Virus record (IMG/VR): IMGVR_UViG_2619619134_000015
Location: 1-16,655 of that record
Source of the DNA: a virus
Lineage: Duplodnaviria; Heunggongvirae; Uroviricota; Caudoviricetes
Direction: 5' to 3' (one strand)
Length of the DNA stretch: 16,655 nt
The notes under the pieces are model-generated. The model was given only the letters and a program-made list of their open reading frames with translations, ran no database searches and was not told the origin of the DNA. Shown piece after piece: positions 2,008 through 16,655 of this stretch (positions are counted from its first letter, which is position 1; the number at the start of each line of letters is the position of its first letter). Made by a program: the position numbers and the translations under genes.

Positions 2008-2091
2008 GTGGTTATCCCCATCGACAAATCGAGAACACAACAAACGCTGCTGCGAATACCACCCCCAGAGTTACGATTGCATCAGGCCAGC

Positions 2092-3387: not shown

Positions 3388-3899
3388 GCCGCGTTTCCTT
3401 CTTTCTTATTAACAATCACACCGTCATATATTTCATTAAGGTGCCCTCTCAACTCCATGCGCCTTAATGCAGATAACATGTAATCGCATTCAACCTGCTT
3501 ATTCCCGGTAAATGGCTTATCGTCAGGATTACCCCAACAGCAATTACCCCTGGGCCATCCATGTACTTTCCGTACTCTTCCGTTAACAACGTGAAGTAAT
3601 CCCCAGCCGGGAGGTAAATCCTCAACTGAAATAATTTCCGGCTCACTAATAAAGAATCGCCAGTCGCCCATGCCAAGTGAGGGATTTTTACGGAAACGCT
3701 TTTTTCTATCTGCCAACAAGTCAGCACGAGAACACTTCGCCTCTATCAGGCATGATGCTGAATTTCTGAATCCCATAGCATCTGGCTGTTCTCCGGTACT
3801 GGTTACAGCAACAAAGCGGTCATGAAAGCAAACCTTGAACCCGTTGCGCTTAAGGAACTTGTACGCAATCTGACAGAGTTCGTGGTGTGTTAACGCCAT
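3384..3899 (-). CDS. Hypothetical protein (171 aa), possible PD-(D/E)XK nuclease-like fold
   Basis: Start chosen at the ATG at 3897-3899, preceded by AAGGAGAG; the ORF-track start at 3941 would overlap the upstream gene. The motif D..(n)..CLIEAKCSRADLL is reminiscent of a PD-(D/E)XK core. This is inference only. Confidence 0.55.
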   Translation of the reverse strand: MALTHHELCQIAYKFLKRNGFKVCFHDRFVAVTSTGEQPDAMGFRNSASCLIEAKCSRADLLADRKKRFRKNPSLGMGDWRFFISEPEIISVEDLPPGWGLLHVVNGRVRKVHGWPRGNCCWGNPDDKPFTGNKQVECDYMLSALRRMELRGHLNEIYDGVIVNKKEGNAA

Positions 3900-3900
3900 A

Positions 3901-4383
3901 TCACTCTCCTTTGATGCGAATGCCAGCGGCGCGGGAATCATTCCATCGCTTTACTTCTTCACGAATTACGTCAATGCATTCTTTCGAATCCATTAGGTAA
4001 TCTTCATCAAAAAGACGTTCCTGTTCGTTTTCTATCGCAACAATGATTGCTTCAACTAACTTTTGTTCCTGAGAATCACTTTCTAACTCTGCTATGCGCT
4101 TACTCCCATCCGAGATAACACCTTCGTAATATTCACGCTGTTCGTTGAGTTTTGATTTTGTCTCCTCAAGCTCAACGCGCAGCTTCCCTACCGTTAGCGC
4201 AATATCCTCGTTCTCCTGGTCGCGGCGTTTGATGTATTGCTGGTTTCTTTCCCGTTCATCCAGCAGTGCCAGCACAACCTGAGGTGTGACTTTCATACGA
4301 AATGCCAGCAATTTTTGAGGCGTTGCTACTGTTTCAATTGCTACTGCCGCCTCACGCAGTGCCTGAGAGTTAATTTCGCTCAC
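3901..4383 (-). CDS. Hypothetical coiled-coil protein (160 aa, E/K/R/Q-rich)
   Basis: GTG start at 4381-4383 preceded by GAGAGG, overlapping the stop of the upstream TraR-like gene (GTGA). Composition is strongly helical and charged. Function unknown. Confidence 0.55.
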   Translation of the reverse strand: MSEINSQALREAAVAIETVATPQKLLAFRMKVTPQVVLALLDERERNQQYIKRRDQENEDIALTVGKLRVELEETKSKLNEQREYYEGVISDGSKRIAELESDSQEQKLVEAIIVAIENEQERLFDEDYLMDSKECIDVIREEVKRWNDSRAAGIRIKGE

Positions 4384-4601
4384 TTCGAACCTCTCTGTTT
4401 ACTGATAAGTTCCAGATCCTCCTGGCAACTTGCACAAGTCCGACAACCCTGAACGGCCAAGCGTCTTCGTTCATCTATCGGATCGCCACACTCACAACAA
4501 TGAGTGGCAGATATAGCCTGGTGGTTCAGGCGGCGCATTTTTATTGCTGTGTTGCGCTGTAATTCTTCAATTTCTGATGCTGAATCAATGATGTCTGCCA
4601 T
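4380..4601 (-). CDS. TraR/DksA-family C4 zinc-finger protein (73 aa)
   Basis: The four-Cys pattern CCECGDPIDERRR...GCRTCASC is typical of phage and plasmid TraR/DksA C4-type zinc fingers. ATG at 4601. Confidence 0.75.
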   Translation of the reverse strand: MADIIDSASEIEELQRNTAIKMRRLNHQAISATHCCECGDPIDERRRLAVQGCRTCASCQEDLELISKQRGSK

Positions 4602-4650
4602 CTTTCATTAATCCCTGAATTGTTGGTTAATACGCTTGAGGGTGAATGCG

Positions 4651-4677
4651 AATAATAAAAAAGGAGCCTGTAGCTCC
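4651..4677 (-). terminator. Rho-independent terminator (leftward)
   Basis: On the minus strand, a GGAGC-TACAG-GCTCC hairpin is followed by TTTTTTATTATT. It lies between the 4700-4915 gene and the TraR-like gene. Confidence 0.55.
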
Positions 4678-4699
4678 CTGATGATTTTGCTTTTCATGT

Positions 4700-4915
4700 T
4701 CATCGCTCCTTAAAGACGCCGTTTAACATGCCGATCGCCAGGCTTAAATGAGTCGGTGTGAATCCCATCAGCGTTACCGTTTCGCGGTGCTTCTTCAGTA
4801 CGCTACGGCAAATGTCATCGACGTTTTTATCCGGAAACTGCTGTCTGGCTTTTTTGATTTCAGAATTAGCCTGACGGGCAATGCTGCGAAGGGCGTTTTC
4901 CTGCTGAGGTGTCAT
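4700..4915 (-). CDS. Hypothetical protein (71 aa from the ATG at 4915; the ORF also has an upstream ATG at 4981)
   Basis: ORF in the lambda orf61 position downstream of orf63. Start is uncertain because neither ATG has a strong RBS. Identity to lambda orf61 is not established. Confidence 0.45.
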   Translation of the reverse strand: MTPQQENALRSIARQANSEIKKARQQFPDKNVDDICRSVLKKHRETVTLMGFTPTHLSLAIGMLNGVFKER

Positions 4916-4991
4916 TGAACAAGTCCCATGTCGGCAAGCATAAGCACACAGAATATGAAGCCCGCTGCCAGAAAAATGCATTCAGTGGTTG

Positions 4992-5183
4992 TCATACCTG
5001 GTCTCTCTCATCTGCTTCTGCTTTCGCCACCATCATTTCCAGCTTTTGTGAAAGGGATGCGGCTAACGTATGAAATACTTCGTCTGTTTCTACTGGTATT
5101 GGCACAAACCTGACTCCAATTTGAGCGAGGCTATGTGCCATCTCGATACTCGTTCTTAACTCAACGGGAGATGCTTTGTGCAT
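4992..5183 (-). CDS. Lambda orf63-like protein (63 aa)
   Basis: Exactly 63 aa, with an ATG at 5183 preceded by GGGGAG. Position relative to exo matches the lambda order exo-orf60a-orf63. Identification is from gene order and size plus partial memory of the sequence. Confidence 0.55.
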   Translation of the reverse strand: MHKASPVELRTSIEMAHSLAQIGVRFVPIPVETDEVFHTLAASLSQKLEMMVAKAEADERDQV

Positions 5184-5338
5184 ACAGCTCCCCGTTTATT
5201 ATTTATCTCCTCAGCCAGCCGCTGTGCTTTCAGGGGATTTCGGATAACAGAAAGGCCGGGAAATACCCAGCCTCGCTTTGTAACGGAGTAGACGAAAGTG
5301 ATCGCGCCTACCCGGATATTATCGTGAGGATGCTTCAT
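5156..5338 (-). CDS. Lambda orf60a-like protein (60 aa)
   Basis: The ATG at 5336-5338 overlaps the exo stop (ATGA), giving a 60-aa product ([16 protein letters not shown]...). It is immediately downstream of exo, as in lambda. Confidence 0.55.
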
Positions 5339-6015
5339 CGCCATTGCTCCCCAAATACAAAACCAATTTCAGCCAGTGCCTCGTCCATTTTTTCGATGAA
5401 CTCCGGCACCATCTCGTCAAAACTCGCCATGTAATTTTCATCCCGCTCAACCACGACATAATGCAGGCCTTCACGCTTCATTCGTGGGTCATAGTTGGCA
5501 AAGTACCAGGCATCTTTTCGCGTCACCCACATGCTGTACTGCACCTGGGCCATGTAAGCTGACTTTATGGCCTCGAAACCACCGAGCCGGAATTTCATGA
5601 AATCCCGGGAGGTAAACGGGCATTTCAGTTCAAGGCCGTTGCCGTCACTGCATAAACCATCGGGAGAGCAGGCGGTGCGCATACTTTCGTCGCGATAGAT
5701 GATCGGGGATTCAGTAACATTCACGCCGGAAGTAAACTCAAACAGGGCTCTGGCGTCGTTCTCGTACTGTTTTCCCCAGGCCAGCGCCTTAGCATTAACT
5801 TCCGGAGCCACACCGGTGCAAACCTCAGCCAGCAGGGTGTGGAAGTAGGACATTTTCATGTCAGGCCACTTCTTTCCTGAGCGGGGCTTTGCTATCACGT
5901 TGTGAACTTCTGAAGCGGTGATGACGCCGAGCAGTAATTTGTGCCATGCATCATCCCCCTGTTCGACAGCTCTCACGTCGATCCCGGTACGCTGCAGGAT
6001 AATGTCCGGTGTCAT
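5335..6015 (-). CDS. exo: Lambda exonuclease (Red-alpha), 226 aa
   Basis: The protein ([43 protein letters not shown] ... FVFGEQWR) matches lambda Exo as remembered. Its start overlaps the bet stop. Confidence 0.95.
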
Positions 6016-6797
6016 GCTGCCACCTTCTGCTCAGTGGCTTTCTGTTTCAGGAATCCAAGAGCTTTCACTGCTTCGGCCTGTGTCAGTTCTGACGATGCGC
6101 GAATGTCGCGGCGAAATATCTGGGAACAGAGCGGCAATAAGTCGTCATCCCATGTTTTATCCAGGGCGATCAGCAGAGTGTTAATCTCCTGCATGGTTTC
6201 ATCGTTAACCGGAGTGATGTCGCGTTCCGGCTGACGTTCTGCAGTGTATGCAGTATTTTCGACAATGCGCTCGGCTTCATCCTTGTCATAGATACCAGCA
6301 AATCCGAAGGCCAGACGGGCACACTGAATCATGGCTTTATGCCGTAACATCCGTTTGGGATGCGACTGCCACGGTCCGGTGATTTCTCTGCCTTCGCGGG
6401 TTTTGAATGGTTCGCGGCGGCATTCATCCATCCACTCGGTAACGCAGATCGGATGATTACGGTCCTTGCGGTAAATCCGGCATGTACATGATTCATTGTC
6501 CTGCTCAAAGTCCATGCCATCAAACTGCTGGTTTTCATTGATGATACGGGACCAGCCATCAACGCCCACCACCGGAACGATGCCGTTCTGCTTGTCAGGG
6601 AAGGCGTAAATTTCTTTCGTCCACGGATTAAGGCCGTACTGGTTGGCGACGATCAACAATGCGATGAACTGCGCATCGCTGGCATCACCTTTAAATGCCG
6701 TCTGGCGAAGAGTGGTGATCAGTTCCTGTGGGTCGACAGAATCCATGCCGACACGTTCAGCCAGCTTCCCAGCCAGCGTTGCGAGTGCTGTACTCAT
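6012..6797 (-). CDS. bet: Lambda Bet single-strand annealing protein (Red-beta), 261 aa
   Basis: The protein ([66 protein letters not shown]...) matches lambda Bet as remembered. Confidence 0.95.
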
Positions 6798-6802
6798 CCG
6801 TT

Positions 6803-7219
6803 TTATACCTCTGAATCAATATCAACCTGGTGGTGAGCAATGGTTTCAACCATGTACCGGATGTGTTCTGCCATGCGCTCCTGAAACTCAACATCGTCAT
6901 CAAACGCACGGGTAATGGCTTTTTTGCTGGCCCCGTGGCGTTGCAAATGATCGATGCATAGCGATTCAAACAGGTGCTAGGGCAGGCTTTTTTCCATGTC
7001 GTCTGCCAGTTCTGCCTCTTTCTCTTCACGGGCGAGCTGCTGGTAGTGACGCGTCCAGCTCTGAGCCTCAAGACGATCCTGAATGTAATAAGCGTTCATG
7101 GCTGAACTCCTGAAATAGCTGTGAAAATATCGCCCGCGAAATGCCGGGCTGATTAGGAAAACAGGAAAGGGGGTTAGTGAATGCTTTTGCTTGATCTCAG
7201 TTTCAGTATTAATATCCAT
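6803..7219 (-). pseudogene. gam: gam (RecBCD inhibitor) interrupted by an in-frame amber codon
   Basis: The locus is 417 nt, equal to the 138-codon lambda gam. The N-terminal 80 codons ([50 protein letters not shown]...DDMEKSLP) end at a TAG at 6977-6979. Downstream, the same frame encodes [57 protein letters not shown], matching the lambda Gam C-terminus, then a TAA at 6803-6805. Confidence 0.85.
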
Positions 7220-7317
7220 TTTTTATAAGCGTCGACGGCCTCACGAAACATCTTTTCATCGCCAATAAAAGTGGCGATAGTGAATTTAGTCTGGATAGCC
7301 ATAAGTGTTTGATCCAT
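7174..7317 (-). CDS. kil: Kil, host cell-division inhibitor (47 aa)
   Basis: [47 protein letters not shown] matches lambda Kil as remembered. It overlaps the gam start and the cIII 3' end, as in lambda. The ORF-track N-terminal extension to 7443 is an artefact. Confidence 0.8.
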
Positions 7318-7450
7318 TTTTTGGGACTCCTGGCTGATTAAGTATGTCGATAAGGCGTTTCCATCCGTCACGTAATTTACGGGTGATTCGTTCAAGTAAA
7401 GATTCGGAAGGGCAGCCAGCAACAGGCCACCCTGCAATGGCATATTGCAT
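7286..7450 (-). CDS. cIII: CIII, FtsH/HflB inhibitor that stabilises CII (54 aa)
   Basis: The ATG at 7448-7450 begins MQYAIAGWPVAGCP..., the lambda CIII N-terminus. The ORF is 165 nt and is absent from the ORF track because it is under 60 aa. Confidence 0.8.
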   Translation of the reverse strand: MQYAIAGWPVAGCPSESLLERITRKLRDGWKRLIDILNQPGVPKNGSNTYGYPD

Positions 7451-7522
7451 GGTGTGCTCCTTATTTATACATAACGAAAAACGCCTCGAGTGAAGCGTTA
7501 TTGGTATGCGGTAACGCCGCGC

Positions 7523-7891
7523 TCAGGCGGCTTTGATAGTCATATCATCTGAATCAAATATTCCTGATGTATCGATATCGGTAATTCTTATTCCTTCGCT
7601 ACCATCCATTGGAGGCCATCCTTCCTGACCGTTTCCATCATTCCAGTCGAACTCACACACAACACCATATGCATTTAAGTCGCTTGAAATTGCTATAAGC
7701 AGAGCATGTTGCGCCAGCATGATTAATACAGCATTTAATACAGAGCCGTGTTTATTGAGTCGGTATTCAGAGTCTGACCAGAAATTATTAATCTGGTAAA
7801 GTTTTTCCTCTGTCATTACGTCATGGTCGATTTCAATTTCTATTGATGCTTTCCAGTCGTAATCAATGATGTATTTTTTGATGTTTGACAT
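7523..7891 (-). CDS. ea10: Ea10-like protein (122 aa)
   Basis: Its size and its position immediately upstream of cIII match lambda ea10. ATG at 7891. Confidence 0.7.
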   Translation of the reverse strand: MSNIKKYIIDYDWKASIEIEIDHDVMTEEKLYQINNFWSDSEYRLNKHGSVLNAVLIMLAQHALLIAISSDLNAYGVVCEFDWNDGNGQEGWPPMDGSEGIRITDIDTSGIFDSDDMTIKAA

Positions 7892-7910
7892 CTATTCATA
7901 TCCTCACAGA

Positions 7911-7937
7911 TAAAAAATCGCCCTCATACTGGAGGGC
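7911..7937 (-). terminator. Rho-independent terminator (leftward) between the accessory cassette and ea10
   Basis: On the minus strand, a GCCCTC-(6 nt)-GAGGGC hairpin (7920-7937) is followed by GATTTTTTAT. Confidence 0.5.
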
Positions 7938-8041
7938 AAAGAAGATTTCCAATAATCAGAACAAGTCGACTCCTGTTTAGTTACGAGCGACATTGCTCCG
8001 TGTATTCACTCGTTGGAATGAATACACAGTGCTTATTCGTA

Positions 8042-8512
8042 CTAATAAAACACCCAGTTTTCTGTTTCTTGGTTGTGTCCAAAGTTATATTCAATATCTG
8101 GTGTTGATGTATCAATATTCTTCATCCCATCAACAAGAGTTGATGCAACAGCCAAATCTTGTTTGATTCTCATTAAATGGTATTTCTTCCGGCGCAATAA
8201 ACTTTCAATGGCAAGTTTCTTCGTTGGGAATGCAAAAGATCTTTCTGCATTTTTTGCTACTTTCTTAATTGCATATCTATTTCTCTTTTGTTTCCATTCC
8301 TGTAACCACTGATTTGGTGCTGGTTTAAAATTAACAATCCAATGCGCAGGAACCAACCATGCATAATGCTCTGTCTGATGAAAAGCTATATATTGAAGTG
8401 CGAATATTTTGATTCCATCTTCTTCAACTGTCGCCTGGAATCTCCAGAAAACAGGCATTCCATCATGTTCAGTTTCTGATTCAGGAAAAGGTACGCTCCA
8501 TGATTTTGTCAT
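8042..8512 (-). CDS. Hypothetical protein (156 aa), accessory cassette gene A
   Basis: ATG at 8512 preceded by GAGGTGA. It lies in an AT-rich segment (judged by eye) in the position of lambda ral/sieB. No recognisable motifs. Confidence 0.6.
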   Translation of the reverse strand: MTKSWSVPFPESETEHDGMPVFWRFQATVEEDGIKIFALQYIAFHQTEHYAWLVPAHWIVNFKPAPNQWLQEWKQKRNRYAIKKVAKNAERSFAFPTKKLAIESLLRRKKYHLMRIKQDLAVASTLVDGMKNIDTSTPDIEYNFGHNQETENWVFY

Positions 8513-8569
8513 ATCTCACCTCAAATAATTCAGTGCAGTGTTTATTCTGTTGCTTATTCCAAAGCAAAT

Positions 8570-8812
8570 TTAACCAGCAACAAACTCTTCTGGTAATTTA
8601 TCAACCACTTGATGGCTTATTATCAGCCATTTGCCATCCTTCGTTCCGTATGCATATTTCTGGTCTTTTATCATCATGTGTTCAGCTACTGCCTTAACTG
8701 CCTGTTCGGTTACATCTTCTTTCTTTCCCACCCACATTCCTTTTTCAGTGTTTAATGTTCCTTGAAAAATACGACCACTTAATGGGCTTGCGCCCATAGT
8801 TTTGATTTTCAT
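8570..8812 (-). CDS. Hypothetical protein (80 aa; MKIKTMGASPLSGRIFQGT...), accessory cassette gene B
   Basis: Start chosen at the ATG at 8810-8812, preceded by GGAGA. The longer ORF-track start at 8875 has no RBS and would overlap gene C. Confidence 0.5.
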   Translation of the reverse strand: MKIKTMGASPLSGRIFQGTLNTEKGMWVGKKEDVTEQAVKAVAEHMMIKDQKYAYGTKDGKWLIISHQVVDKLPEEFVAG

Positions 8813-8820
8813 ATGTCTCC

Positions 8821-8848
8821 TTAAAAATAAAGGCCGATTATGCGGCCT
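8821..8848 (-). terminator. Hairpin plus T-run (leftward) between cassette genes C and B
   Basis: On the minus strand, an AGGCCG-cataat-CGGCCT hairpin (8831-8848) is followed by TTATTTTTAA, immediately before the gene B RBS. Confidence 0.45.
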
Positions 8849-8852
8849 GAAA

Positions 8853-9176
8853 TTAATTAACCAATGATGCTGCATATTCGATAAGGTAAAGCTTTGGGGC
8901 CAGCCAAATTTTTAACCAAGTCATATTGGTTACTGCACCAATAATAAAATCCCCCCACAGAGTCAAAACTCCAACCAATGGCACGATAAGAAGATTAATA
9001 TCACCTTTGCTATCCCAAACCATTGTCGGCCTGTATTTGGGATTTCCTTTCTCCCATGAATATCCTTCATCACCGATTTCACCTGTCTCAACTCTTTGGC
9101 ACTGCTTCTTCATAAACCAGAAAACCAGTGGGATTGTTAGAATGGCTATTAATGTTTTAATCAGACTGTCAACCAT
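8853..9176 (-). CDS. Small membrane protein (107 aa, two predicted TM helices), accessory cassette gene C
   Basis: Start at the ATG at 9174-9176 (the ORF-track start at 9191 is a TTG). Hydrophobic stretches LIKTLIAILTIPLVFWF and INLLIVPLVGVLTLWGDFIIGAV. RBS is weak. Confidence 0.5.
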   Translation of the reverse strand: MVDSLIKTLIAILTIPLVFWFMKKQCQRVETGEIGDEGYSWEKGNPKYRPTMVWDSKGDINLLIVPLVGVLTLWGDFIIGAVTNMTWLKIWLAPKLYLIEYAASLVN

Positions 9177-9442
9177 ATTCCATAGCAGCAACTGATGAAC
9201 AACATCAGGAATCTGTGCCTGGCTAAATGAAACAGCCGCGTCTATTCCATTGCTGGCTTTTTGCAGTAGTTCTACGAGAATCTTGTTTGCTTGTTCTTCC
9301 GTATATCACCTTAAATAGTGGATTGCGGTAGTAAAGATTGTGCCTGTCTTTTAACCACATCGGGCTCGGTGGTTCCTCCACTTTCCACAGTCAAAGGAAA
9401 TGGGTAGACTGTTGTTTCCACAGTCAAAAGAAGGGCTTTGTT

Positions 9443-9607
9443 ATGACAGATATTGTTAATCCCAAAACCAACCCACACGAAGCCGCTCAACAGATTATTG
9501 TTGAGCTTATCAGAGCCGGTAATCTTGCCCCTGGCATTGACGGAAAGCCAAGCACAGTTGTTTATGAAAAAATTCTTGATGAGATTATCAGAATAAACAG
9601 TAAGTAA
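9443..9607 (+). CDS. Hypothetical small protein (54 aa; MTDIVNPKTNPHEAAQQIIVELIRAGNLAPGIDGKPSTVVYEKILDEIIRINSK)
   Basis: First ATG of the 9338..9607 ORF, preceded by AAGAAGGG. It is the only rightward ORF in the left arm and is preceded by two 18-bp direct repeats. Confidence 0.35.
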   Translation: MTDIVNPKTNPHEAAQQIIVELIRAGNLAPGIDGKPSTVVYEKILDEIIRINSK

Positions 9608-9847
9608 TTAAGAGAACAAAATTTCGAATGCCTGGCGGATGGTTGCAACATCTTCGTTCGTCAGTTTTTTTCGTTCATCTGATGACATCGATAACAATGC
9701 ATTCCTCTCAATCAACGTAGCCAGCAGTTTAGATGCTATATTTTGAACGTCAGGGCTTAACTCTAAGAATTTATTTCGACTACGTTCGAGAATAAGTTGT
9801 GTCGCGGGTGTATCTTTTAACTCAGATATTTTTTTTGTCCAATACAT
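9608..9847 (-). CDS. Hypothetical protein (79 aa from the ATG at 9847) immediately downstream of N
   Basis: The ORF-track start at 9871 is a TTG; the first ATG is at 9845-9847 with a weak RBS. It is convergent with the 54-aa plus-strand ORF. Confidence 0.35.
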   Translation of the reverse strand: MYWTKKISELKDTPATQLILERSRNKFLELSPDVQNIASKLLATLIERNALLSMSSDERKKLTNEDVATIRQAFEILFS

Positions 9848-9904
9848 CAAGCATTTCTTTCGTTTTCTCAATTAGTAATTGTTCAATACATGAAATATCC
9901 ATAA

Positions 9905-10213
9905 TTACCTCGCCGTCAGTTGTTTTGATTTCCGATAGCCTGCCACGTAGATGGCTACGTTTGGCAGGCAAATGCTTCCATTGCATTCGTCGGTATTTTG
10001 GTTACGAATGTTGCCGAGTGATATTGCTTTTTCAGAAAGGCTTAAACGCTTTCTCGGTTCTTTCTGAACAGGTTCATCACTGTCTGTACCGAAGATCGAA
10101 TCGATGATGTTGCATATAGCATCACGCTCGATAGCCAGCTTTCTGCGCCGCTCATGACGGCGAGTTTTGGCATTTCCTGTAAATGTTGATTTCCCGTACA
10201 CGATTACCGTCAT
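9905..10213 (-). CDS. N: N-type transcription antiterminator (102 aa), P22 gp24-like
   Basis: Arginine-rich motif GNAKTRRHERRRKLAIERD near the N-terminus, matching my recollection of P22 gp24. It sits between the immunity region and the recombination genes. The nut sites have P22-type GACAA boxB loops. Confidence 0.8.
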   Translation of the reverse strand: MTVIVYGKSTFTGNAKTRRHERRRKLAIERDAICNIIDSIFGTDSDEPVQKEPRKRLSLSEKAISLGNIRNQNTDECNGSICLPNVAIYVAGYRKSKQLTAR

Positions 10214-10392
10214 GATGTTTTCCTCATGTAAAATGGCTTTGGTGGTGAGGTAGGTGGGAGACCCATTTCGACCTGTTTCGGCCTACTTCAATTCGGCAAT
10301 AGTCCCGCAGGCCTCGCCGCTTTACGTGCGACATATTCCCGTCCATGAACCCTTCACCACACCGCCAAACCCATCTCGTTTGGTATCTGTTT

Positions 10393-10426
10393 GCGCTTTG
10401 TCAGCGCCCCATCGAAGTTAAAGAGC
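10393..10426 (-). promoter_or_regulatory. nutL (boxA-like GCTCTTTAA plus boxB hairpin GCGCU-GACAA-AGCGC)
   Basis: Read on the minus strand: boxA-like GCTCTTTAA, a roughly 10-nt spacer, then a perfect 5-bp stem with a GACAA pentaloop. Confidence 0.55.
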
Positions 10427-10776
10427 CCGCCAATCTGTTCCGTTTGGCTTCCAACGTCCTGCTGATGGCGATAATAATGAACCAGTAGTTCGATATTATC
10501 AAGAACTATTGGTACGAATCGTTTATGATTTATTAACTCTACGAAATATGATTTTGATATATAAGGAAATTTATTTTTGTAAATGTTGCGGATGAAGGTT
10601 ATGCGGCAGGGATCAGAATTGCGTGGTTTAGCAAGTTGTATCTATTTATTTTTCAATAAATACAATTGGTTATGTGTTTTTAGATGGTGGATCGGGAGGC
10701 AAAGAAAACTGCTAGGTAGAAAACTGTGGGCACAAAAAAGCTAATGTGGAGTTGTTTGATCTTTTTAGGGGAATAA
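10427..10776 (-). promoter_or_regulatory. Presumed pL/OL region (promoter and operators not resolved)
   Basis: AT-rich non-coding segment between the terminator of the cI-linked module and nutL. Position only; no confident -35/-10 or operator assignment. Confidence 0.3.
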
Positions 10777-10803
10777 GAAAACCCGCCGAAGCGGGTGTTT
10801 TTG
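10777..10803. terminator. Bidirectional rho-independent terminator (AAAACCCGC-CGAA-GCGGGTGTTTTT)
   Basis: GC-rich 6-bp stem with a 4-nt loop flanked by an A-run on one side and a T-run on the other. It lies immediately after the stop of the 40-aa ORF, in the position of the lambda immunity-operon terminator. Confidence 0.7.
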
Positions 10804-10804
10804 G

Positions 10805-10927
10805 TTATGCTGCCATTGGAAGCTTTGATGCTAGCATTTCTGCTTTTCTCTGCTTCATTTCAGCAATAATCTGATTGATTCGATCCGCACTTTTAAGCAT
10901 ATCTTTGATATGTTCAGTTCTAGACAT
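10805..10927 (-). CDS. Hypothetical small protein (40 aa; MSRTEHIKDMLKSADRINQIIAEMKQRKAEMLASKLPMAA)
   Basis: Not in the ORF track because it is under 60 aa. ATG at 10925-10927 preceded by GGAGG at 6-nt spacing, 23 nt after the stop of the 120-aa gene. A TAA stop is followed directly by the terminator. Confidence 0.5.
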   Translation of the reverse strand: MSRTEHIKDMLKSADRINQIIAEMKQRKAEMLASKLPMAA

Positions 10928-10950
10928 GTTTATCCTCCGCTCTGTAAGTG

Positions 10951-11313
10951 TCAAAGACCCGATTTAGCACTCTTGAGTAGTTTTGATCCCTCAGAGCACA
11001 AATCAGGATTCTTTTCTCTTATGTTTTTGATTAAAATCTGTGCAAATATGATGATTTGCTTTAAGTTTAGTTCATTGATTGCATCAGCTTTTTGGTCAAG
11101 TTTCTCTAGCTCTGCATCTAATTCGTCAAGAGATGGGTTTGTTAACTCATGCAACCCTTCAATTCCAAGCTCTTCAAGACTGGTTGTAACAAATTCAATC
11201 AGACCGATTACAGCCTTTTTGACGCTATATATCTGCTTCTCCTCTGCGGAGGCCTCTGCACTTGGAACCAATGCTAAGGTTTTCAGATATTCATTCGTTT
11301 CATCTTGGGTCAC
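10951..11313 (-). CDS. Hypothetical acidic protein (120 aa) in the rexA/rexB position downstream of cI
   Basis: GTG start at 11311-11313 preceded by AAGGAG at 8-nt spacing. Same strand as cI and AT-rich. The overlapping plus-strand ORF 10910..11434 has antisense-like S/F-rich composition. Confidence 0.55.
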   Translation of the reverse strand: MTQDETNEYLKTLALVPSAEASAEEKQIYSVKKAVIGLIEFVTTSLEELGIEGLHELTNPSLDELDAELEKLDQKADAINELNLKQIIIFAQILIKNIREKNPDLCSEGSKLLKSAKSGL

Positions 11314-11479
11314 TAACTATACTCCTTATATATGCTCGATCAACCCATTTTGCAACCGCATTTACTGGGATAGAGCTTTTTTTACAATAGTCTTATGTGT
11401 ATATTTACAACGTTGTTTGTGGATAGGGTTATGATTTGTACCTAAAACCTGTCGCATTTTCGTCTCTATGCTATTGGTA

Positions 11480-12187
11480 TTAATAATTTCTCAGCCACTC
11501 CCTTGCCTCGATGTCATCCAGATGGCGAGATTGCTTCAGAATACCAGCCACATACTCCACCTTTGCTACTTGATGATAAGGCAACGTTATTGGTCTGTGG
11601 TCCTGGTTGATGCTTGTAAATTGGTATTCTCCATCTCTGTCATAGCCAAGAATCTTGATCATGTTGTGTCCTTCGATGGTTCTGACAAACACCTCATCAC
11701 CCGGGAATACTTTGGTGTTAGGCTCAATGAGTACATATTCTCCTGATTTTATTCTGGGCCACATGCTGTCTCCTTTCACACGAAGACCAAAGGCATCTGG
11801 ATCATCGCTATAAATCTTGAGCCACCCATCGCGTTCTTCGGTCATCTCGATGGCACCATCAACACCAAGAATTGCCTCACCAACCACGCGCACTAACCCT
11901 TTTTTTAATTTGCCAACAAATGAAAGAGTATCTTCATCATTCGCTCCATTTAACGAAGTGCCGTGCTGAAGCCAAACAACATCAACGTTTAGAAATTTCG
12001 CAAGCGCATTCATTTTTTCCTGACGCGGTAAAGACTCAGCATTAAACCATTTGCTAACGCCTTTGGACGAAAGAGAAAGGGCACGGGCTATAGCCATTCC
12101 CCTACCATGTTCATCAAGACCAGCTTCTTTACAGGCTTGCGCTAGCCGCTGGGCGAATTCTTTGCGCACTTTTTCATTCTGAACCAT
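11480..12187 (-). CDS. cI: CI-type prophage repressor (235 aa), HTH N-terminal domain plus LexA/S24-like self-cleaving C-terminal domain
   Basis: N-terminal HTH region (GMAIARALSLSSKGVSKWFNAE) and a C-terminal domain with the Ser (GDSMWP) and downstream Lys typical of the S24 peptidase fold. It is divergent from cro. It is not the lambda cI sequence. Confidence 0.85.
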   Translation of the reverse strand: MVQNEKVRKEFAQRLAQACKEAGLDEHGRGMAIARALSLSSKGVSKWFNAESLPRQEKMNALAKFLNVDVVWLQHGTSLNGANDEDTLSFVGKLKKGLVRVVGEAILGVDGAIEMTEERDGWLKIYSDDPDAFGLRVKGDSMWPRIKSGEYVLIEPNTKVFPGDEVFVRTIEGHNMIKILGYDRDGEYQFTSINQDHRPITLPYHQVAKVEYVAGILKQSRHLDDIEAREWLRNY

Positions 12188-12265
12188 GAGTACGATACTA
12201 AAGCACTTGCAAAAACTTTCAGTTCAATCATAATGCGTACTGAAAGTACGAAAAAGGATATTCCT
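12188..12265. promoter_or_regulatory. OR/pR/pRM region between cI and cro
   Basis: Candidate pR: -35 TTGCAA (12207-12212) and -10 CATAAT (12229-12234) at 16-nt spacing. A perfect palindrome CGTACtgaaaGTACG (12235-12249) and inverted 9-mers ACTTTCAGT/ACTGAAAGT are candidate operator elements. Confidence 0.45.
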
Positions 12266-12493
12266 ATGCAAAATCTTGATGAGCCGATTAAAGGTGTCGG
12301 CATACCTGAAGTTGCGAAGGCTTGTGGAGTTAGCGAAAGGGCTGTCTATAAGTGGCTCAAAAACGGCTTCCTCCCTAAGACTGAGTTTTTTGGGAAAACG
12401 AAATACGCCTCAAAAATCGAAGAGATTTCTGGTGGCAAATATCAAGCAAGCGAAATGCTTGAAATAAGTAAAAAGAACCTTCTGGCTGCATAA
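12266..12493 (+). CDS. cro: Cro-type repressor (75 aa)
   Basis: ATG at 12266 preceded by AAGGA. HTH motif AKACGVSERAVYKWLKNG. It is divergent from cI and followed by nutR. Confidence 0.7.
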   Translation: MQNLDEPIKGVGIPEVAKACGVSERAVYKWLKNGFLPKTEFFGKTKYASKIEEISGGKYQASEMLEISKKNLLAA

Positions 12494-12500
12494 GTAACAC

Positions 12501-12535
12501 CGCTCTTTATCAATCTGCACCGCCGACAACGCGGT
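12501..12535 (+). promoter_or_regulatory. nutR (boxA CGCTCTTTA plus boxB-like hairpin with GACAA loop)
   Basis: CGCTCTTTA at 12501-12509, then ACCGCCGACAACGCGGT at 12519-12535. A hairpin/T-rich stretch (cactcatcgaaagatgagtattagtgattattt) follows and is a possible tR1. Confidence 0.55.
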
Positions 12536-12599
12536 AACTAATTAAGCACTCATCGAAAGATGAGTATTAGTGATTATTTACCTATGGAAATAGTAAGAA

Positions 12600-12896
12600 A
12601 TGGAAAGAACAAGTTACAGCAAACTATCACAGCGTGACGTTGATCGCGCAGAAACAGATTTACTTATCAATCTGTCAGCTATTACCCAGCGCGGTCTGGC
12701 AAAGATGATTGGCTGTCATGAATCGAAGATAAGCAGAACGGACTGGCGGTTTATTGCTTCGGTCCTGTGTGCTTTCGGAATGGCATCAGACATCAGTCCG
12801 ATTAGCAGGGCTTTTAAGTATGCGCTTGATGAAATCATCAATAAAAAACGCCCGGCGGCAACCGAGCGTTCTGAACAAATCCAGATGGAATTCTGA
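12600..12896 (+). CDS. cII: CII transcriptional activator (98 aa), chimeric: divergent N-terminal part, lambda-identical C-terminus
   Basis: The C-terminus NKKRPAATERSEQIQMEF is identical to lambda CII. The N-terminal 80 residues are homologous in pattern but divergent. Confidence 0.8.
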   Translation: MERTSYSKLSQRDVDRAETDLLINLSAITQRGLAKMIGCHESKISRTDWRFIASVLCAFGMASDISPISRAFKYALDEIINKKRPAATERSEQIQMEF

Positions 12897-12917
12897 GATC
12901 ATTACTGGATCAATCCA
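12842..12917 (-). ncRNA. oop: OOP antisense RNA with its terminator
   Basis: On the minus strand, the 3' end reads GTTGCCGCCGGGCGTTTTTTAT, the characteristic lambda oop terminator. The body is antisense to the cII 3' end. The 5' end is estimated by lambda homology (GGATTGATCCAGTAATGA...). Confidence 0.6.
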
Positions 12918-12928
12918 CAGGAGTCATT

Positions 12929-13867
12929 ATGACAAATACAGCAAAAATACTCAACTTCTGCAGAGGTAACTTTGCCAAACAGGAGCGTAATGTGGCAGAT
13001 CTCGATGATGGTTACGCCAGACTATCAAATATGCTGATTGAGGCTTATTCAGGCGCAGATCTGACCAAGCGACAGTTTAAAGTGCTGCTTGCCATTCTGC
13101 GTAAAACCTATGGGTGGAATAAACCAATGGACAGAATCACCGATTCTCAACTTAGCGAGATTACAAAGTTACCTGTCAAACGGTGCAATGAAGCCAAGTT
13201 AGAACTCGTCAGAATGAATATTATCAAGCAGCAAGGCGGCATGTTTGGACCAAATAAAAACATCTCAGAATGGTGCATCCCTCAAAACGAGGGAGGTTCC
13301 CCTAAAATGAGGGACATCCCTCAAAACGAGGGAAAATCCCCTAAAACGAGGGATAAAACATCCCTCAAATTAGGGGATTGCTATCCCTCAAAACAGGGGG
13401 ACACAAAAGACACTATTACAAAAGAAAAAAGAAAAGATTATTCGTCCGAGAATTCTGGCGAATCCTCTGACCAGCCAGAAAACGATCTTTCTGTGGTTAA
13501 ACCGGATGCTGCAATTCAGAGCGGCAGCAAGTGGGGAACAGCAGAAGACCTGACCGCCGCAGAGTGGATGTTTGACATGGTGAAGACCATCGCACCATCA
13601 GCCAGAAAACCGAATTTTGCAGGGTGGGCTAACGATATCCGCCTGATGCGTGAACGTGACGGACGTAACCACCGCGACATGTGCGTGCTGTTCCGCTGGG
13701 CATGCCAGGACAACTTCTGGTCCGGTAACGTGCTAAGTCCGGCCAAACTCCGCGACAAGTGGACCCAGCTCGAAATCAACCGTAACAAGCAACAGGCTGG
13801 CGTGACAGCTGGAAAACCAAAACTCGACCTGACAAACACTGACTGGATTTACGGGGTGGATTTATGA
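12929..13867 (+). CDS. O: Replication initiator O (312 aa)
   Basis: MTNTAKILNF...TDWIYGVDL matches lambda O as remembered, except for a 13-aa insertion (GGSPKMRDIPQNE) that corresponds to two extra ori iterons. Confidence 0.95.
   Translation: MTNTAKILNFCRGNFAKQERNVADLDDGYARLSNMLIEAYSGADLTKRQFKVLLAILRKTYGWNKPMDRITDSQLSEITKLPVKRCNEAKLELVRMNIIKQQGGMFGPNKNISEWCIPQNEGGSPKMRDIPQNEGKSPKTRDKTSLKLGDCYPSKQGDTKDTITKEKRKDYSSENSGESSDQPENDLSVVKPDAAIQSGSKWGTAEDLTAAEWMFDMVKTIAPSARKPNFAGWANDIRLMRERDGRNHRDMCVLFRWACQDNFWSGNVLSPAKLRDKWTQLEINRNKQQAGVTAGKPKLDLTNTDWIYGVDL
13278..13401. repeat. ori-lambda-type iteron array within O: six roughly 18-bp iterons (TCCCTCAAAACGAGGGA-like) at about 20-bp periodicity
   Basis: Iterons at approximately 13278, 13298, 13317, 13337, 13361 and 13384, followed by an A-rich region (acaaaagacactattacaaaagaaaaaagaaaag). 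Confidence 0.85.
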
Positions 13868-14565
13868 AAAACATCGCCGCACAGATGGTTAACTTTGACC
13901 GTGAGCAGATGCGTCGGATCGCCAACAACATGCCGGAACAGTACGACGAAAAGCCGCAGGTACAACAGGTAGCGCAGATCATCAACGGTGTGTTCAGCCA
14001 GTTACTGGCAACTTTCCCGGCGAGTCTGGCTAACCGGGACCAGAACGAACTGAATGAAATCCGCCGCCAGTGGGTTCTGGCTTTCCGGGAAAACGGGATC
14101 ACCTCGATGGAACAGGTTAACGCAGGAATGCGCGTAGCCCGTCGGCAGAATCGACCATTTCTTCCATCACCCGGGCAGTTTGTTGCATGGTGCCGGGAAG
14201 AAGCATCCGTTATCGCCGGACTGCCAAACGTCAGCGAGCTGGTTGATATGGTTTACGAGTATTGCCGGAAGCGAGGCCTGTATCCGGATGCAGAGTCTTA
14301 TCCGTGGAAATCGAACGCGCACTACTGGCTGGTTACCAACCTGTACCAGAACATGCGGGCCAATGCGCTGACTGACGCGGAATTACGACGCAAGGCTGCC
14401 GATGAACTGACCTGTATGACAGCGCGAATTAACCGTGGTGAGACGATACCTGAACCAGTAAAACAACTTCCTGTCATGGGCGGCAGACCTCTAAATCGTG
14501 TTCAGGCGCTGGCGAAGATCGCAGAAATTAAAGCTAAGTTCGGACTGAAAGGAGCAAGTGTATGA
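13864..14565 (+). CDS. P: Replication protein P (DnaB helicase loader), 233 aa
   Basis: MKNIAAQMVNFDREQMRRIANNMPEQYDEKPQVQQVAQIINGVFSQLLATFPAS... matches lambda P as remembered. Its start overlaps the O stop (ATGA). Confidence 0.95.
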   Translation: MKNIAAQMVNFDREQMRRIANNMPEQYDEKPQVQQVAQIINGVFSQLLATFPASLANRDQNELNEIRRQWVLAFRENGITSMEQVNAGMRVARRQNRPFLPSPGQFVAWCREEASVIAGLPNVSELVDMVYEYCRKRGLYPDAESYPWKSNAHYWLVTNLYQNMRANALTDAELRRKAADELTCMTARINRGETIPEPVKQLPVMGGRPLNRVQALAKIAEIKAKFGLKGASV

Positions 14566-14852
14566 CGGGCAAAGAGGCAATTATTCATTACCTGGGGACG
14601 CATAATAGCTTCTGTGCGCCGGACGTTGCCGCGCTAACAGGCGCAACAGTAACCAGCATAAATCAGGCTGCGGCTAAAATGGCGCGGGCAGGAATCCTGG
14701 TCATTGATGGTAAGGTCTGGCGAACGGTGTATTACCGGTTTGCTACCAGGGAAGAACGGGAAGGAAAGGTGAGCACGAACCTGATTTTTAAGGAGTGTCG
14801 CCAGAGTGCAGCGATGAAACGGGTATTGGCGGTATATGGAGTTAAAAGATGA
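14562..14852 (+). CDS. ren: Ren (96 aa)
   Basis: MTGKEAIIHYLGTHNSFCAPDVAALTGATVTSINQAAAKMARAGILVIDGKVWRT... matches lambda Ren as remembered. Confidence 0.9.
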   Translation: MTGKEAIIHYLGTHNSFCAPDVAALTGATVTSINQAAAKMARAGILVIDGKVWRTVYYRFATREEREGKVSTNLIFKECRQSAAMKRVLAVYGVKR

Positions 14853-14876
14853 CCATCTACATCACTGAGCTAATAA

Positions 14877-14907
14877 CAGGCCTGCTGGTAATCGCAGGCC
14901 TTTTTAT
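14877..14907 (+). terminator. Rho-independent terminator (tR2-like)
   Basis: AGGCCTGC-tggtaatc-GCAGGCCT hairpin followed by TTTTTATTT, just downstream of ren. Confidence 0.6.
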
Positions 14908-14922
14908 TTGGGGGAGAGGGAA

Positions 14923-15240
14923 GTGAACGATAGCTACCGACAGTTTGAAAACTGGTGGTCAAAAGACAAAAGCCAGTTCACGGGAGACGATGAATTAAAA
15001 GAGTTTGCCTGGGTGATATGGCAGGCATCGCGCTCTGCTATTGAACTGGATATCGACTGGCCCGAATCGAATGACGACTTTTGGAAAGATGGTGAAGAAG
15101 GTGCTTATGCGATGGGTTATGAGGATGGGAGAGACAAAACGGTAATTGCAGTAATGAAAGCTATCAGATCCGCTGGAATTAAAGAGAAGAATTTCGATGA
15201 AGCAAATATACATGCTTCGCAACGAAGCAATCAGAAATAA
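14923..15240 (+). CDS. Hypothetical acidic protein (about 105 aa)
   Basis: GTG start at 14923 preceded by GGGAGAGGG; the ORF-track start at 14908 is a TTG inside the terminator T-run. Its 3' end overlaps the ninB start by about 44 nt in another frame. Confidence 0.45.
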   Translation: MNDSYRQFENWWSKDKSQFTGDDELKEFAWVIWQASRSAIELDIDWPESNDDFWKDGEEGAYAMGYEDGRDKTVIAVMKAIRSAGIKEKNFDEANIHASQRSNQK

Positions 15241-15643
15241 CGCCATAGACGCAATACTCTCACTTCCCATCGACGACAAGTCACCCCACGAAGTCCACCT
15301 TAAAGAACCCAAACGCAGCAAAGCGCAGAATGACCGTATGTGGCCGATGCTGAACGATGTTTCGCGTCAGGTGCTATGGCATGGTCAACGGCTGGCACCG
15401 GAAGACTGGAAAGACCTGTTCACTGCCCTGTGGCTTAAGACCAAAAAACTGGAGCAACGAAGTGTTCCTGGTATCGACGGTGGCGTTGTCATGCTTGGCG
15501 TGCGTACCAGCAAAATGCGAAAGGCCAGCATGACTGAGCTTATCGAAATCATGTTCTGGTTCGGCTCAGAGCGCAACGTGCGGTGGAGTGATGACTCCCG
15601 GCGAGAGTATGAATGGTCACAACGAAAAGGGAAGGCTGCATGA
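15197..15643 (+). CDS. ninB: NinB-like recombination protein (148 aa)
   Basis: Clear but diverged similarity to lambda NinB (QNDRMWPMLNDVSRQVLWHGQRL..., VRWSD..., C-terminal GKAA). Start could be the ATG at 15197 or at 15212. Confidence 0.8.
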   Translation: MKQIYMLRNEAIRNNAIDAILSLPIDDKSPHEVHLKEPKRSKAQNDRMWPMLNDVSRQVLWHGQRLAPEDWKDLFTALWLKTKKLEQRSVPGIDGGVVMLGVRTSKMRKASMTELIEIMFWFGSERNVRWSDDSRREYEWSQRKGKAA

Positions 15644-16167
15644 CTATCAAATCAAATACACCAGCGTCAGATAGGTATCGGCTTATTGAGGATTATCTGT
15701 ATTTAGACGGAGATACAGTCAGATACAAAAAGGACTCGCTAAAACACCCCAACCACAGCCACCGGGCCGGAGATGAAATTAAAACATCGATAAATGGATC
15801 TGGGTATAGACAGGTGTGTTTTGCAGGCATTCAGATGTTTGTTCACGTAGTTGTTTTTGCGCTGCACAACAAAAGAATGCCATTGAAAAATATTGACCAT
15901 ATTAACGGAAACAGGCTGGACAATTCCCCAAAAAATCTTAGGGAGGCAAACCGGATAGCAAACAGCCGAAATCAGAAAACTAAGTGCAATAGCCGTTCTG
16001 GAATAAAAAATGTTTTATGGAACAAGCAAAAAAATAAATGGGCCGTTCAAGTGCGCACAGATTTTGGCCGGTTGCATTTTGGGTTCTATGAAGATCTTGA
16101 GCTTGCTGGTTTGGTTGCCAGTGAGGCTATCAACAAATATCACGGACAATATGCGAGGGTTGAATGA
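15640..16167 (+). CDS. HNH homing-type endonuclease with a C-terminal AP2-like DNA-binding domain (175 aa)
   Basis: HNH core (HNKRMPLKNIDHINGNRLDNSPKNLREANRIANSRN) followed by a segment typical of AP2-like domains in phage HNH endonucleases (SGIKNVLWNKQKNKWAVQV...FGFYEDLELA). Its ATG overlaps the ninB stop (ATGA) and its stop overlaps the next gene start (ATGA). Confidence 0.75.
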   Translation: MTIKSNTPASDRYRLIEDYLYLDGDTVRYKKDSLKHPNHSHRAGDEIKTSINGSGYRQVCFAGIQMFVHVVVFALHNKRMPLKNIDHINGNRLDNSPKNLREANRIANSRNQKTKCNSRSGIKNVLWNKQKNKWAVQVRTDFGRLHFGFYEDLELAGLVASEAINKYHGQYARVE

Positions 16168-16655
16168 TTAAGCATAAATCAGAAACACCAAAAGAAGTTA
16201 GAGACTGCTGGCAAACGCCGCTTTGGCTTTTTGATGCACTGGATATTGAGTTTGGATTCTGGCTGGATTCAGCTGCGAGCGACAAAAACGCTCTGTGCGC
16301 TCACTGGCTAACTGAGGTCGACGACGCGCTCAATTCTGAGTGGGTAAGCCACGGTGCAATCTGGAATAACCCACCGTACAGCAATATCAGGCCGTGGGTG
16401 GAAAAAGCCGCTGAGCAGTGCATACAACAGCGACAGACGGTAGTTATGCTTGTGCCAGAGGATATGTCAGTCGGATGGTTCAGCAAGGCTCTGGAGAGTG
16501 TCGACGAAGTTCGCATTATCACTGATGGACGGATTAATTTTATCGAACCATCGACGGGGCTGGAGAAGAAGGGAAACAGCAAAGGCTCCATGCTGCTGAT
16601 TTGGCGACCGTTCATCAGTCCTCGACGGATGTTTACTACCGTATCCAAAGCGGCA
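16164..16655 (+). CDS. Phage N6-adenine DNA methyltransferase (Dam-like), 3'-truncated by the window end
   Basis: Open frame from the ATG at 16164 to the window end (164 codons). It carries the motif IV NPPY (IWNNPPYSNIRPWV) and sits in the nin region where lambdoid phages commonly carry such an enzyme. It is absent from the ORF track because no stop lies within the window. Confidence 0.8.
   Translation, partial: MIKHKSETPKEVRDCWQTPLWLFDALDIEFGFWLDSAASDKNALCAHWLTEVDDALNSEWVSHGAIWNNPPYSNIRPWVEKAAEQCIQQRQTVVMLVPEDMSVGWFSKALESVDEVRIITDGRINFIEPSTGLEKKGNSKGSMLLIWRPFISPRRMFTTVSKAA

Follow-up and report, generated by a model that had tools for sequence, protein, structure and literature searches.

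A probable accessory cassette beside prophage repressors pairs a small acidic protein with a 40-residue peptide ending in Ala-Ala

Introduction

What occupies the place of rexA and rexB in a lambda-type prophage whose genes at that place resemble neither of the two? The question is raised by a stretch of DNA of 16,655 nucleotides (nt), positions 1 to 16,655 of the Caudoviricetes record IMGVR_UViG_2619619134_000015 of IMG/VR, which represents the early region of a lambda-type prophage and is referred to here as the window. Directly downstream of its cI-type repressor gene, positions 10777 to 11479 hold two small genes and a terminator. A first reading made from the letters alone (hereafter the sequence-only reading) had placed these genes in the rexA/rexB position, co-oriented with cI, and had suggested an undescribed exclusion or defense module. 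We found that the segment is very probably a real, autonomous, and paired accessory cassette, which consists of a gene for an acidic protein of 120 amino acids (aa) (the big gene) and a gene for a 40-aa partner peptide (the small gene), and we rate it as a genuine, uncharacterized cassette of the accessory or conflict kind known from places next to prophage repressors.

The interval between cI and N is a mosaic hotspot that holds rexAB and BstA (PMC8585504), and the Gifsy immunity regions carry the defense genes RemAIN and gipd474 (PMC12724215, PMC9879122). With rexAB, nun, BstA, and RemAIN, this interval is among the best-documented sites of lysogen-protecting genes, and most of its cargo families are still uncharacterized. 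The cassette is compact (~560 bp), self-contained, and conserved from Escherichia to Aeromonas; even without a role in defense, it represents a well-delimited family within the “dark matter” of prophage immunity regions.

Results and Discussion

Two small genes and a terminator are inherited together

From the stop codon of cI to the terminator, the cassette of the window comprises the following features (coordinates of the window).

11314-11479, minus strand: AT-rich spacer of 166 nt that separates the cI stop codon from the big gene and holds the promoter-like motif
11350-11355, minus strand: -35-like hexamer TTGCAA, part of the conserved promoter-like motif
11327-11332, minus strand: -10-like hexamer TATATA, sharing one base with the start of the Shine-Dalgarno sequence
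11322-11327, minus strand: Shine-Dalgarno sequence AAGGAG of the big gene, 8 nt 5' of the GTG, read from the sequence and kept across loci
10951-11313, minus strand: big gene, encoding the 120-aa acidic protein, with a GTG start (11313-11311) and a TGA stop
10934-10938, minus strand: Shine-Dalgarno sequence GGAGG of the small gene, 6 nt 5' of the ATG, read from the sequence
10805-10927, minus strand: small gene, encoding the 40-aa partner peptide MSRTEHIKDMLKSADRINQIIAEMKQRKAEMLASKLPMAA, with the ATG at 10927-10925
10781-10796, both strands: bidirectional intrinsic terminator ACCCGC-TTCG-GCGGGT, with a 6-bp GC-rich stem and a TTCG loop

The gap of 23 nt between the two genes contains the GGAGG. 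The terminator, nine bases past the small open reading frame (ORF), has an A run before and a T run after its stem and was scored on both strands, in agreement with the GC-rich bidirectional terminator described in the sequence-only reading. The same reading had described the acidic protein with its GTG start and AAGGAG site, as well as the peptide with its ATG and GGAGG. The former is present as described, and the latter proved to be a real gene, as the comparison of homologous loci revealed.

Relatives of the big protein form 21 clusters at 90% identity and occur in Serratia, Pectobacterium, Edwardsiella, Pantoea, Photorhabdus, Raoultella, and Salmonella. Among 1.84 billion representative sequences, a profile search found only 30 proteins (at 50% identity), all of them 59 to 135 aa long, and no fused or multidomain relatives. 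The pair is present in ~75 loci of many Enterobacterales and of an Aeromonas phage. From 59 loci fetched we tabulated 18 distinct ones, which include the isolated phages Aeromonas AsXd-1 and Klebsiella vB_Kpn_RAH1. In all 18, an ORF of 33 to 50 codons with a GGAG-type site starts 12 to 69 nt after the big gene, and a terminator follows at most 60 nt past the stop codon of the small ORF. The small ORF also trails the big gene in nine further loci that were reached through the peptide and in three very remote branches, and it is retained where the big proteins are only 25 to 28% identical. Thus, the order of big gene, small gene, and terminator was kept in every distinct locus examined.

Selection has acted on the small ORF at the protein level. 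Among fourteen peptide genes of 40 codons (91 pairs), the mean proportions of synonymous (pS) and nonsynonymous (pN) differences were 0.68 and 0.33, respectively, with synonymous differences being twice as frequent; by this comparison of sequences, the peptide is under purifying selection, and by their joint conservation the two genes are an obligate pair. In one copy of the distant E. coli variant (locus L056, ~6250; IMG/VR contig 2531839336_000007), codon 95 of the big gene has changed from TCA to TAA while the small gene and the terminator are intact, indicating at least that the peptide can be tolerated when the full-length partner is missing.

In the prokaryotic genome annotation pipeline (PGAP), the two products (WP_000189752.1 and WP_256204659.1) both bear the label of a hypothetical protein. 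The pipeline leaves the 40-aa gene unannotated in the E. coli genomes that carry the distant variant, and the conservation described above gives reason to annotate it. With megablast, the phage collection gave no DNA match, and tblastn found only the two isolated phages AsXd-1 and vB_Kpn_RAH1. A scan of the GTDB species representatives returned a sole locus, from E. albertii; the broad family alignment was too divergent for the design of search patterns.

The cassette is found beside many repressors and on other mobile elements

The cassette is nearly always located just downstream of an S24-type repressor gene, in the same orientation, and the repressor alleles beside it are many. It lies between the S24 repressor gene and N in Serratia, Yersinia, Cronobacter, Morganella, Klebsiella phage RAH1, and E. 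coli; in the window, its position between cI and a pL-like promoter with the N gene (PF25694) confirms the rexA/rexB slot. The adjoining repressors are 210 to 257 aa long, and at least nine of them can be told apart by length and type; the cro and replication modules differ as well. One allele of the module in Yersinia was found beside three different repressors.

Some contexts have no repressor nearby. In Aeromonas phage AsXd-1 the cassette follows int and a DinI-family gene, and in Salmonella houtenae it is preceded, at a distance of ~580 nt, by a Cloacin/Pyocin_S gene with its presumed immunity gene. The other repressor-free neighborhoods contain lambda-type tail genes, a weak RepL-like gene, or ppx, and a probable small plasmid also carries the pair. 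Upstream of the cassette, a DinI-family gene or gene fragment is present in two of the repressor-free contexts (locus L059, 3386-3649, in AsXd-1; locus L008, 616-726, in S. houtenae). This adjacency may be a coincidence, DinI-like genes being common phage cargo, or it may be a hint of a link to the SOS response.

The exact module is rare in E. coli, being present in 4 of 5426 complete genomes, and the variant with a 25 to 28% identical big protein was found in 32. This rarity, together with the presence of the same module beside many repressors and on other mobile elements, upholds the horizontal acquisition that had been suggested on the basis of AT richness. The base composition itself also agrees with the earlier description: positions 10777 to 11479 have a GC content of 38.5% and the 166-nt spacer has 34.9%, compared with 46.0% in the whole window and 45.1% in cI, which puts the segment in the lowest 8% of windows of the same size. 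The AT richness is real but modest, low and not extreme.

The big gene encodes an acidic protein with a predicted helical bundle

The 120-aa protein of the window has an isoelectric point (pI) of 4.6 and a net charge of -9.4, and each of the 18 pairs has an acidic big protein (pI 4.4 to 5.2, net charge -4 to -11). AlphaFold2 gave the same five-helix model with two alignment depths (helices at residues 3-12, 23-57/58, 61-79, 82-99, and 103-119, the second being the longest). No transmembrane segment was detected in the big proteins, whose maximal Kyte-Doolittle hydropathy over 19 residues does not exceed 1.71. In a broad alignment of 39 sequences, the only invariant residues are G50, P60, and S61; the stretch that contains them, GI.GLHELTNPSLDEL, looks more like a helix-turn-helix-cap structural motif than a catalytic site. 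That only Gly, Pro, and Ser are invariant suggests a nonenzymatic protein. A HEPN-type RNase toxin, which we also considered, was ruled out, given that the family has neither the Rx4-6H motif nor an invariant charged residue.

The view of the sequence-only reading that the module is undescribed and has no assignable motif has stood up to database searches. Neither cassette protein matches a curated family in Pfam, NCBIfam, or PADLOC, and Pfam and PADLOC assigned none of the 39 family members to a known family. With PADLOC-DB v2 the best match was to AbiEi (E = 0.004, 14.8 bits) in 4 of the 39 members, the others giving single weak matches; it was set aside as noise because it is inconsistent across the family. 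A profile search of PDB sequences and fold searches returned only generic or designed helical bundles (E > 0.07), and Foldseek comparisons of the two AlphaFold2 models with the PDB and BFVD had best E values of 0.2 to 0.4, again to designed or generic four-helix bundles. Homology to a known structural or regulatory protein was thus not found in the profile and structure searches. The one family that was matched is PHROG 16322, annotated as “unknown function”: the window protein matches it with E = 1.7e-6, and 24 of the 39 members do so with E values down to 8.2e-89. Judged from these alignments, PHROG 16322 is a distant branch of the big-protein family. The WP accession was not found in a literature search or in the DefensePredictor supplements.

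The partner peptide carries a conserved helix face and a terminal Ala-Ala

The peptide is hydrophilic overall and has a conserved hydrophobic stripe at positions 7, 10/11, 14, 17, 20/21, 24, 28, and 31/32, the spacing of which matches one face of an α-helix, so that we read it as an amphipathic helix. No transmembrane segment was detected in the peptides (maximal Kyte-Doolittle hydropathy over 19 residues of ≤0.82). In the 18 pairs the peptides are mostly basic, opposite to the acidic big proteins. The exact peptide of the window was found on 446 contigs of a large assembly collection.

Behind the stripe follow five variable residues, with Pro frequent among them, and the C terminus is formed by Lys-Ala-Ala. 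Peptide clusters end in Ala-Ala in 44 of 46 cases and in Lys-Ala-Ala in 41 of 46, the two clusters without the terminal Ala-Ala being visibly frameshifted or truncated. The window peptide ends in PMAA, and the remote members in RKAA, KKAA, or QKVA. In E. coli, terminal Ala-Ala is the critical determinant of ssrA-like, ClpXP-dependent C-terminal degrons, according to a degron study (PMC10862746). We read the Lys-Ala-Ala tail as a putative ssrA-like ClpXP degron; the combination of a conserved face, a linker that varies, and an Ala-Ala end that does not would befit a docking protein with an exposed protease tag. The tail is a sharply defined and easily mutated feature of the peptide.

A conserved promoter-like motif precedes the big gene

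Most loci have, upstream of the big gene, a -35-like hexamer (TTGAAA, TTGCAA, TTGTAA, or TTGATA), a distance of 17 nt (16 in one locus), and TATATA at the ribosome-binding site, as seen in the main clade (loci L002, L005, L008, L014, L020, L022, L023, L034, L035, L040, L060, and L064 to L072). The bases between the two hexamers are unrelated among loci, and (C)TATATAAGGAGTATAGTTA-GTG is kept even where the coding DNA is 65 to 70% identical or its similarity undetectable by blastn. Hexamers at a fixed spacing with a free spacer are the signature of a σ70 promoter, which makes the motif a candidate promoter. With it in front of the big gene, expression of the cassette need not rely on read-through from cI. 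Such read-through is plausible as well, since there is no terminator between cI and the cassette: the terminator scan found no terminator-like hairpin in the 166-nt spacer, nor was any notable RNA structure found there. In the lysogen, the cassette would be expected to be transcribed from a promoter of its own, by read-through from the cI promoter, or by both routes.

Three smaller features were seen at the same site (11311-11355 in the window). A second -10-like hexamer, TATAGT/TATAAT, lies between the Shine-Dalgarno sequence and the GTG, CTATA...TATAG forms a small inverted repeat flanking the Shine-Dalgarno sequence of the big gene, and in the Morganella variant the Shine-Dalgarno sequence is just past the predicted transcription start.

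The cassette may encode a proteolysis-gated conflict module

That the cassette is mobile, occurring on phages and on a probable plasmid, and that it is at home in a repressor-adjacent hotspot points to a conflict function. The account that we propose in full is that the cassette is autonomous, is expressed in the lysogen, and encodes a conflict module of two proteins gated by proteolysis; we advance it tentatively, as an account that has nearly as much chance of being right as of being wrong. The cassette would be a “moron” that lambdoid prophages carry, as do other mobile elements of Enterobacterales, with a promoter-like motif, two separately translated genes, and a terminator. The 120-aa product would act as a nonenzymatic, acidic helical-bundle binder, the activity of which depends on the peptide. 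Strict co-inheritance and the conserved heptad-like hydrophobic stripe suggest that the 40-aa amphipathic helix most likely docks onto the 120-aa protein. Through its ssrA-like ClpXP tail, the peptide would be the labile, continuously resynthesized half of a switch. A superinfecting phage or loss of the element, for example, would perturb the supply or turnover of the peptide and shift the balance between free and peptide-bound acidic protein, which would then bind and block its target, the output being superinfection exclusion, abortive infection, or addiction to the element.

A more specific version, which we regard as speculative and rather unlikely, holds that the cassette is an undescribed kind of conflict system in which a dedicated 40-residue helix, bearing a genetically encoded ssrA-like tail and continuously destroyed by ClpXP, either masks the acidic effector or delivers it to the protease. 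Triggers would then be events that change the peptide supply or the ClpXP capacity, such as the shut-off of host synthesis by a phage, phage substrates of ClpXP, or loss of the element, and the outcome would be exclusion, abortive infection, or postsegregational arrest. If the tail is a ClpXP degron, the cassette would exemplify a minimal form of proteolysis-gated control by two very small, nonenzymatic proteins. A new effector target could also emerge, because an acidic bundle must act by binding something.

Several observations weigh against the proposed module. Database searches revealed no likeness of the cassette proteins to any known defense, toxin, or antitoxin family, and neither sequence shows a mark of effector activity. 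The position in the hotspot is only circumstantial for defense, as the cargo of this slot includes nondefense functions. The AlphaFold2 model of the big protein has moderate confidence (predicted local distance difference test, pLDDT, of 71 to 73). As for the tail, the same degron study describes terminal Ala-Ala as necessary and not sufficient for degradation, and reports that at the antepenultimate position Leu is favored whereas Pro, His, Gly, and short polar residues are disfavored (PMC10862746). The antepenultimate residue of the peptides is Lys (Met in the window), not the Leu favored in ssrA-like tags. Finally, the transcription start predicted ~7 nt past TATATA would be at or after the AAGGAG, which is awkward for the GTG start. 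Either the start site would be atypical, or transcripts from this promoter would mainly serve the peptide and read-through transcripts would serve both genes.

Among the alternatives, the one that survives best assigns the pair to the tuning of the lysis-lysogeny switch or of SOS/RecA induction, with the acidic protein acting on RecA filaments or on the S24 domain, and the Ala-Ala-COOH end of the peptide mimicking the end that LexA-type self-cleavage produces. In being small and acidic the big protein is like DinI, and a DinI-family gene stands directly upstream of the cassette in AsXd-1 and 3.3 kb upstream in S. houtenae. The cassette is almost always directly downstream of the S24 repressor gene, and lambda RexA and RexB, encoded in the same slot, are reported to help lysogens pass into lytic growth (bioRxiv 10.1101/2021.04.19.439022). 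We nonetheless consider a role in the switch unlikely. The cassette combines with many repressor and cro alleles that are unrelated to each other, and it occurs in repressor-free contexts, beside tail genes and a RepL-like replication gene; its proteins have no sequence or fold likeness to DinI, PsiB, RecX, or antirepressors, and adjacency to DinI-like genes, frequent as these are among phage cargo, may be coincidental.

A classical addiction (toxin-antitoxin, TA) pair, which would stabilize the prophage or plasmid without a role in phage defense, ranks lower in our estimate and is improbable. Consistent with it, two small adjacent genes form one transcription unit on phages and a probable small plasmid, and the peptide with its putative protease tag recalls labile antitoxins. 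The sequence-only reading had also entertained a TA-like pair. The arrangement in which an acidic protein is encoded first and a mostly basic one second fits such a pair only loosely; the family shows no toxin fold and no conserved residues that would be catalytic candidates, and the RHH, HTH, or AbrB domains by which an antitoxin binds DNA for autoregulation were detected in neither cassette protein. Of the properties of type II TA systems, the cassette shares only the architecture of two small adjacent genes on mobile elements. The codon-95 nonsense allele, in which the peptide is tolerated without full-length partner, speaks against addiction too, as does the rarity of the module in E. coli (4 of 5426 genomes, and 32 with the distant variant), although addiction is still compatible with such numbers.

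Lower again, and doubtful, is the possibility of cargo for host fitness, such as an orphan protein that gives immunity to, or neutralizes, a bacteriocin or a contact-dependent toxin, or a factor that modulates a host protease or stress pathway. Immunity proteins of nuclease colicins are typically small, acidic helical bundles, as the big protein is predicted to be; the S. houtenae pair is near a Cloacin/Pyocin_S gene and its presumed immunity gene, and the peptide, given its ssrA-like end, might act as a competitor for ClpXP. A bacteriocin neighbor, however, is found in just one of ~75 loci, no likeness to colicin or pyocin immunity families was detected, and the obligate partner peptide has no counterpart among immunity proteins. 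That the ORFs arose by chance or are what is left of decayed genes within an AT-rich spacer, as their shortness, the GTG start of the big gene, the AT-rich surroundings, and the merely “hypothetical” annotation might suggest, is refuted by a family conserved across genera in which the pair, its ribosome-binding sites, and the terminator are all kept, by the purifying selection on the 40-aa ORF, and by the lack of conservation of the antisense frame.

The cassette resembles known systems in arrangement rather than in proteins

With lambda rexA-rexB the cassette shares its place downstream of cI and before oL/pL-N, the common orientation, the arrangement of two genes and a terminator, and, probably, expression from this slot in lysogens. 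The candidate promoter of the cassette could act apart from the cI promoter, loosely like pLIT for rexB. The products differ: RexA has ~280 aa and RexB is a polytopic inner-membrane protein, whereas those of the cassette are small, soluble, and predicted to be helical. PADLOC and Pfam gave no RexA match for the window protein or the 39 family members, and no RexB-like membrane protein was found.

BstA of Salmonella phage BTP1, RemAIN, and gipd474 are likewise lysogen-expressed cargo just downstream of a repressor gene. Moreover, BstA has its own Rho-independent terminator, and some of its homologs are found outside prophages or on plasmids (PMC8585504, PMC12724215, PMC9879122). BstA and gipd474 are single large proteins, and RemAIN consists of three genes of 840, 309, and 663 bp; they are unrelated to the cassette proteins, and none of them has a degron-tailed partner peptide. 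The cassette is not a member of the rexAB or BstA families and is probably under the same expression regime.

The TA systems of types II and VI that are under protease control resemble the cassette in being mobile two-gene units with one acidic and one basic product, one of which is apparently built for degradation by an AAA+ protease. Known examples are Phd/Doc of P1, with degradation by ClpXP, and SocAB, in which the antitoxin hands the toxin to ClpXP. Unlike these, the cassette has no recognizable toxin domain or DNA-binding antitoxin domain, and its putative labile partner would be a single helix of 40 aa. The ssrA-type degrons (ssrA, ...LAA; RseA(1-108), ...VAA; LexA(1-84), ...VAA) have in common with the peptide the terminal Ala-Ala-COOH on an apparently flexible tail, and in the cassette the Ala-Ala is conserved far above the adjacent residues. 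They differ in the antepenultimate residue, which is Leu or Val in these degrons in contrast to the Lys (Met in the window) of the peptides, and in origin, as they are added by tmRNA or exposed by cleavage whereas the putative tag of the cassette is genetically encoded on a dedicated protein.

Morons, in the concept of Hendrix and Juhala, are autonomous promoter-gene-terminator insertions of deviant base composition in lambdoid phages. The cassette agrees with this definition in its terminator, its lower GC content, and its presence/absence polymorphism among related phages, and it has a promoter-like motif as well. It departs from the usual moron in having two genes and in the unusual overlap of the promoter motif with the ribosome-binding site.

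Surroundings of the cassette in the window and in related prophages

The features that flank the cassette in the window are as follows; cI and N, which are outside the cassette, are given for context only.

11480-12187, minus strand: cI-type repressor gene (HTH_3 and Peptidase_S24; Pfam S24, E = 4.2e-16)
10502-10474, minus strand: pL-like promoter, from a promoter scan
10502-10516: operator-like palindrome, from a palindrome search, which alone is not above chance
9905-10213, minus strand: N antiterminator gene (PF25694, E = 2.8e-38)

To the right of cI, the plus strand carries cro, cII (PF05269), and O. The lambda cIII thermoregulator RNA element (RF01804, 88.5 bits) at 7405-7463 on the minus strand confirms a lambda-type pL operon and is the sole Rfam match in the window. 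Between the terminator and the pL-like promoter, ~260 nt of AT-rich DNA (10517-10780) contain no convincing gene; within them, positions 10605-10709 are 84% identical to the same region of E. coli prophages with the distant cassette variant (L041), so that this part is backbone and not cassette. A structured RNA in the spacer or operon was considered and rejected (z = -0.64), nothing but the terminator being found. The longest frame of the region, an antisense ORF of 174 aa (10910-11434, plus strand), is a shadow ORF: it is closed in every homologous locus, where the longest antisense frames have 45 to 111 aa.

Between repressor and cassette, some loci contain a tiny hydrophobic ORF, namely a YoaK-family ORF of 34 aa in Serratia (L005 to L007, 3607-3711), one of 49 aa in Klebsiella phage RAH1 (L060, 3550-3699), and one of 30 aa in Morganella (L072, 3270-3362); the 166-nt spacer of the window has no equivalent. 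Past the terminator, many loci have a convergent small gene of 63 to 114 aa, mostly with an acidic product, which is absent from the window (L002, 6571-6786; L014, 6586-6777; L023, 6693-6896; L060, 4537-4740; L067, 4209-4553). These genes sort into at least four families without relation to one another, DUF2767 among them, and each is probably an accessory gene in its own right that shares the terminator with the cassette. A third component of the cassette was accordingly ruled out, the convergent genes being unrelated to each other and absent from the window and the YoaK-like membrane ORFs occurring only in some loci.

In E. coli 214-4 (L001, 9093-11518), the cassette is 100% identical to that of the window, an ISEc43 element of the IS66 family lies directly on its pL/N side, and no N gene is annotated there. 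In the E. coli CP53 and STEC346 prophages (L061, 2343-3394; L062, 2328-3329), the slot contains other cargo, in one case a pair of hypothetical proteins of 144 and 206 aa and in the other a 333-aa SDH/ClpP-like serine protease. The cI genes of these two prophages share only their last 36 nt with that of the window, and the shared stretch looks like a mosaic recombination junction.

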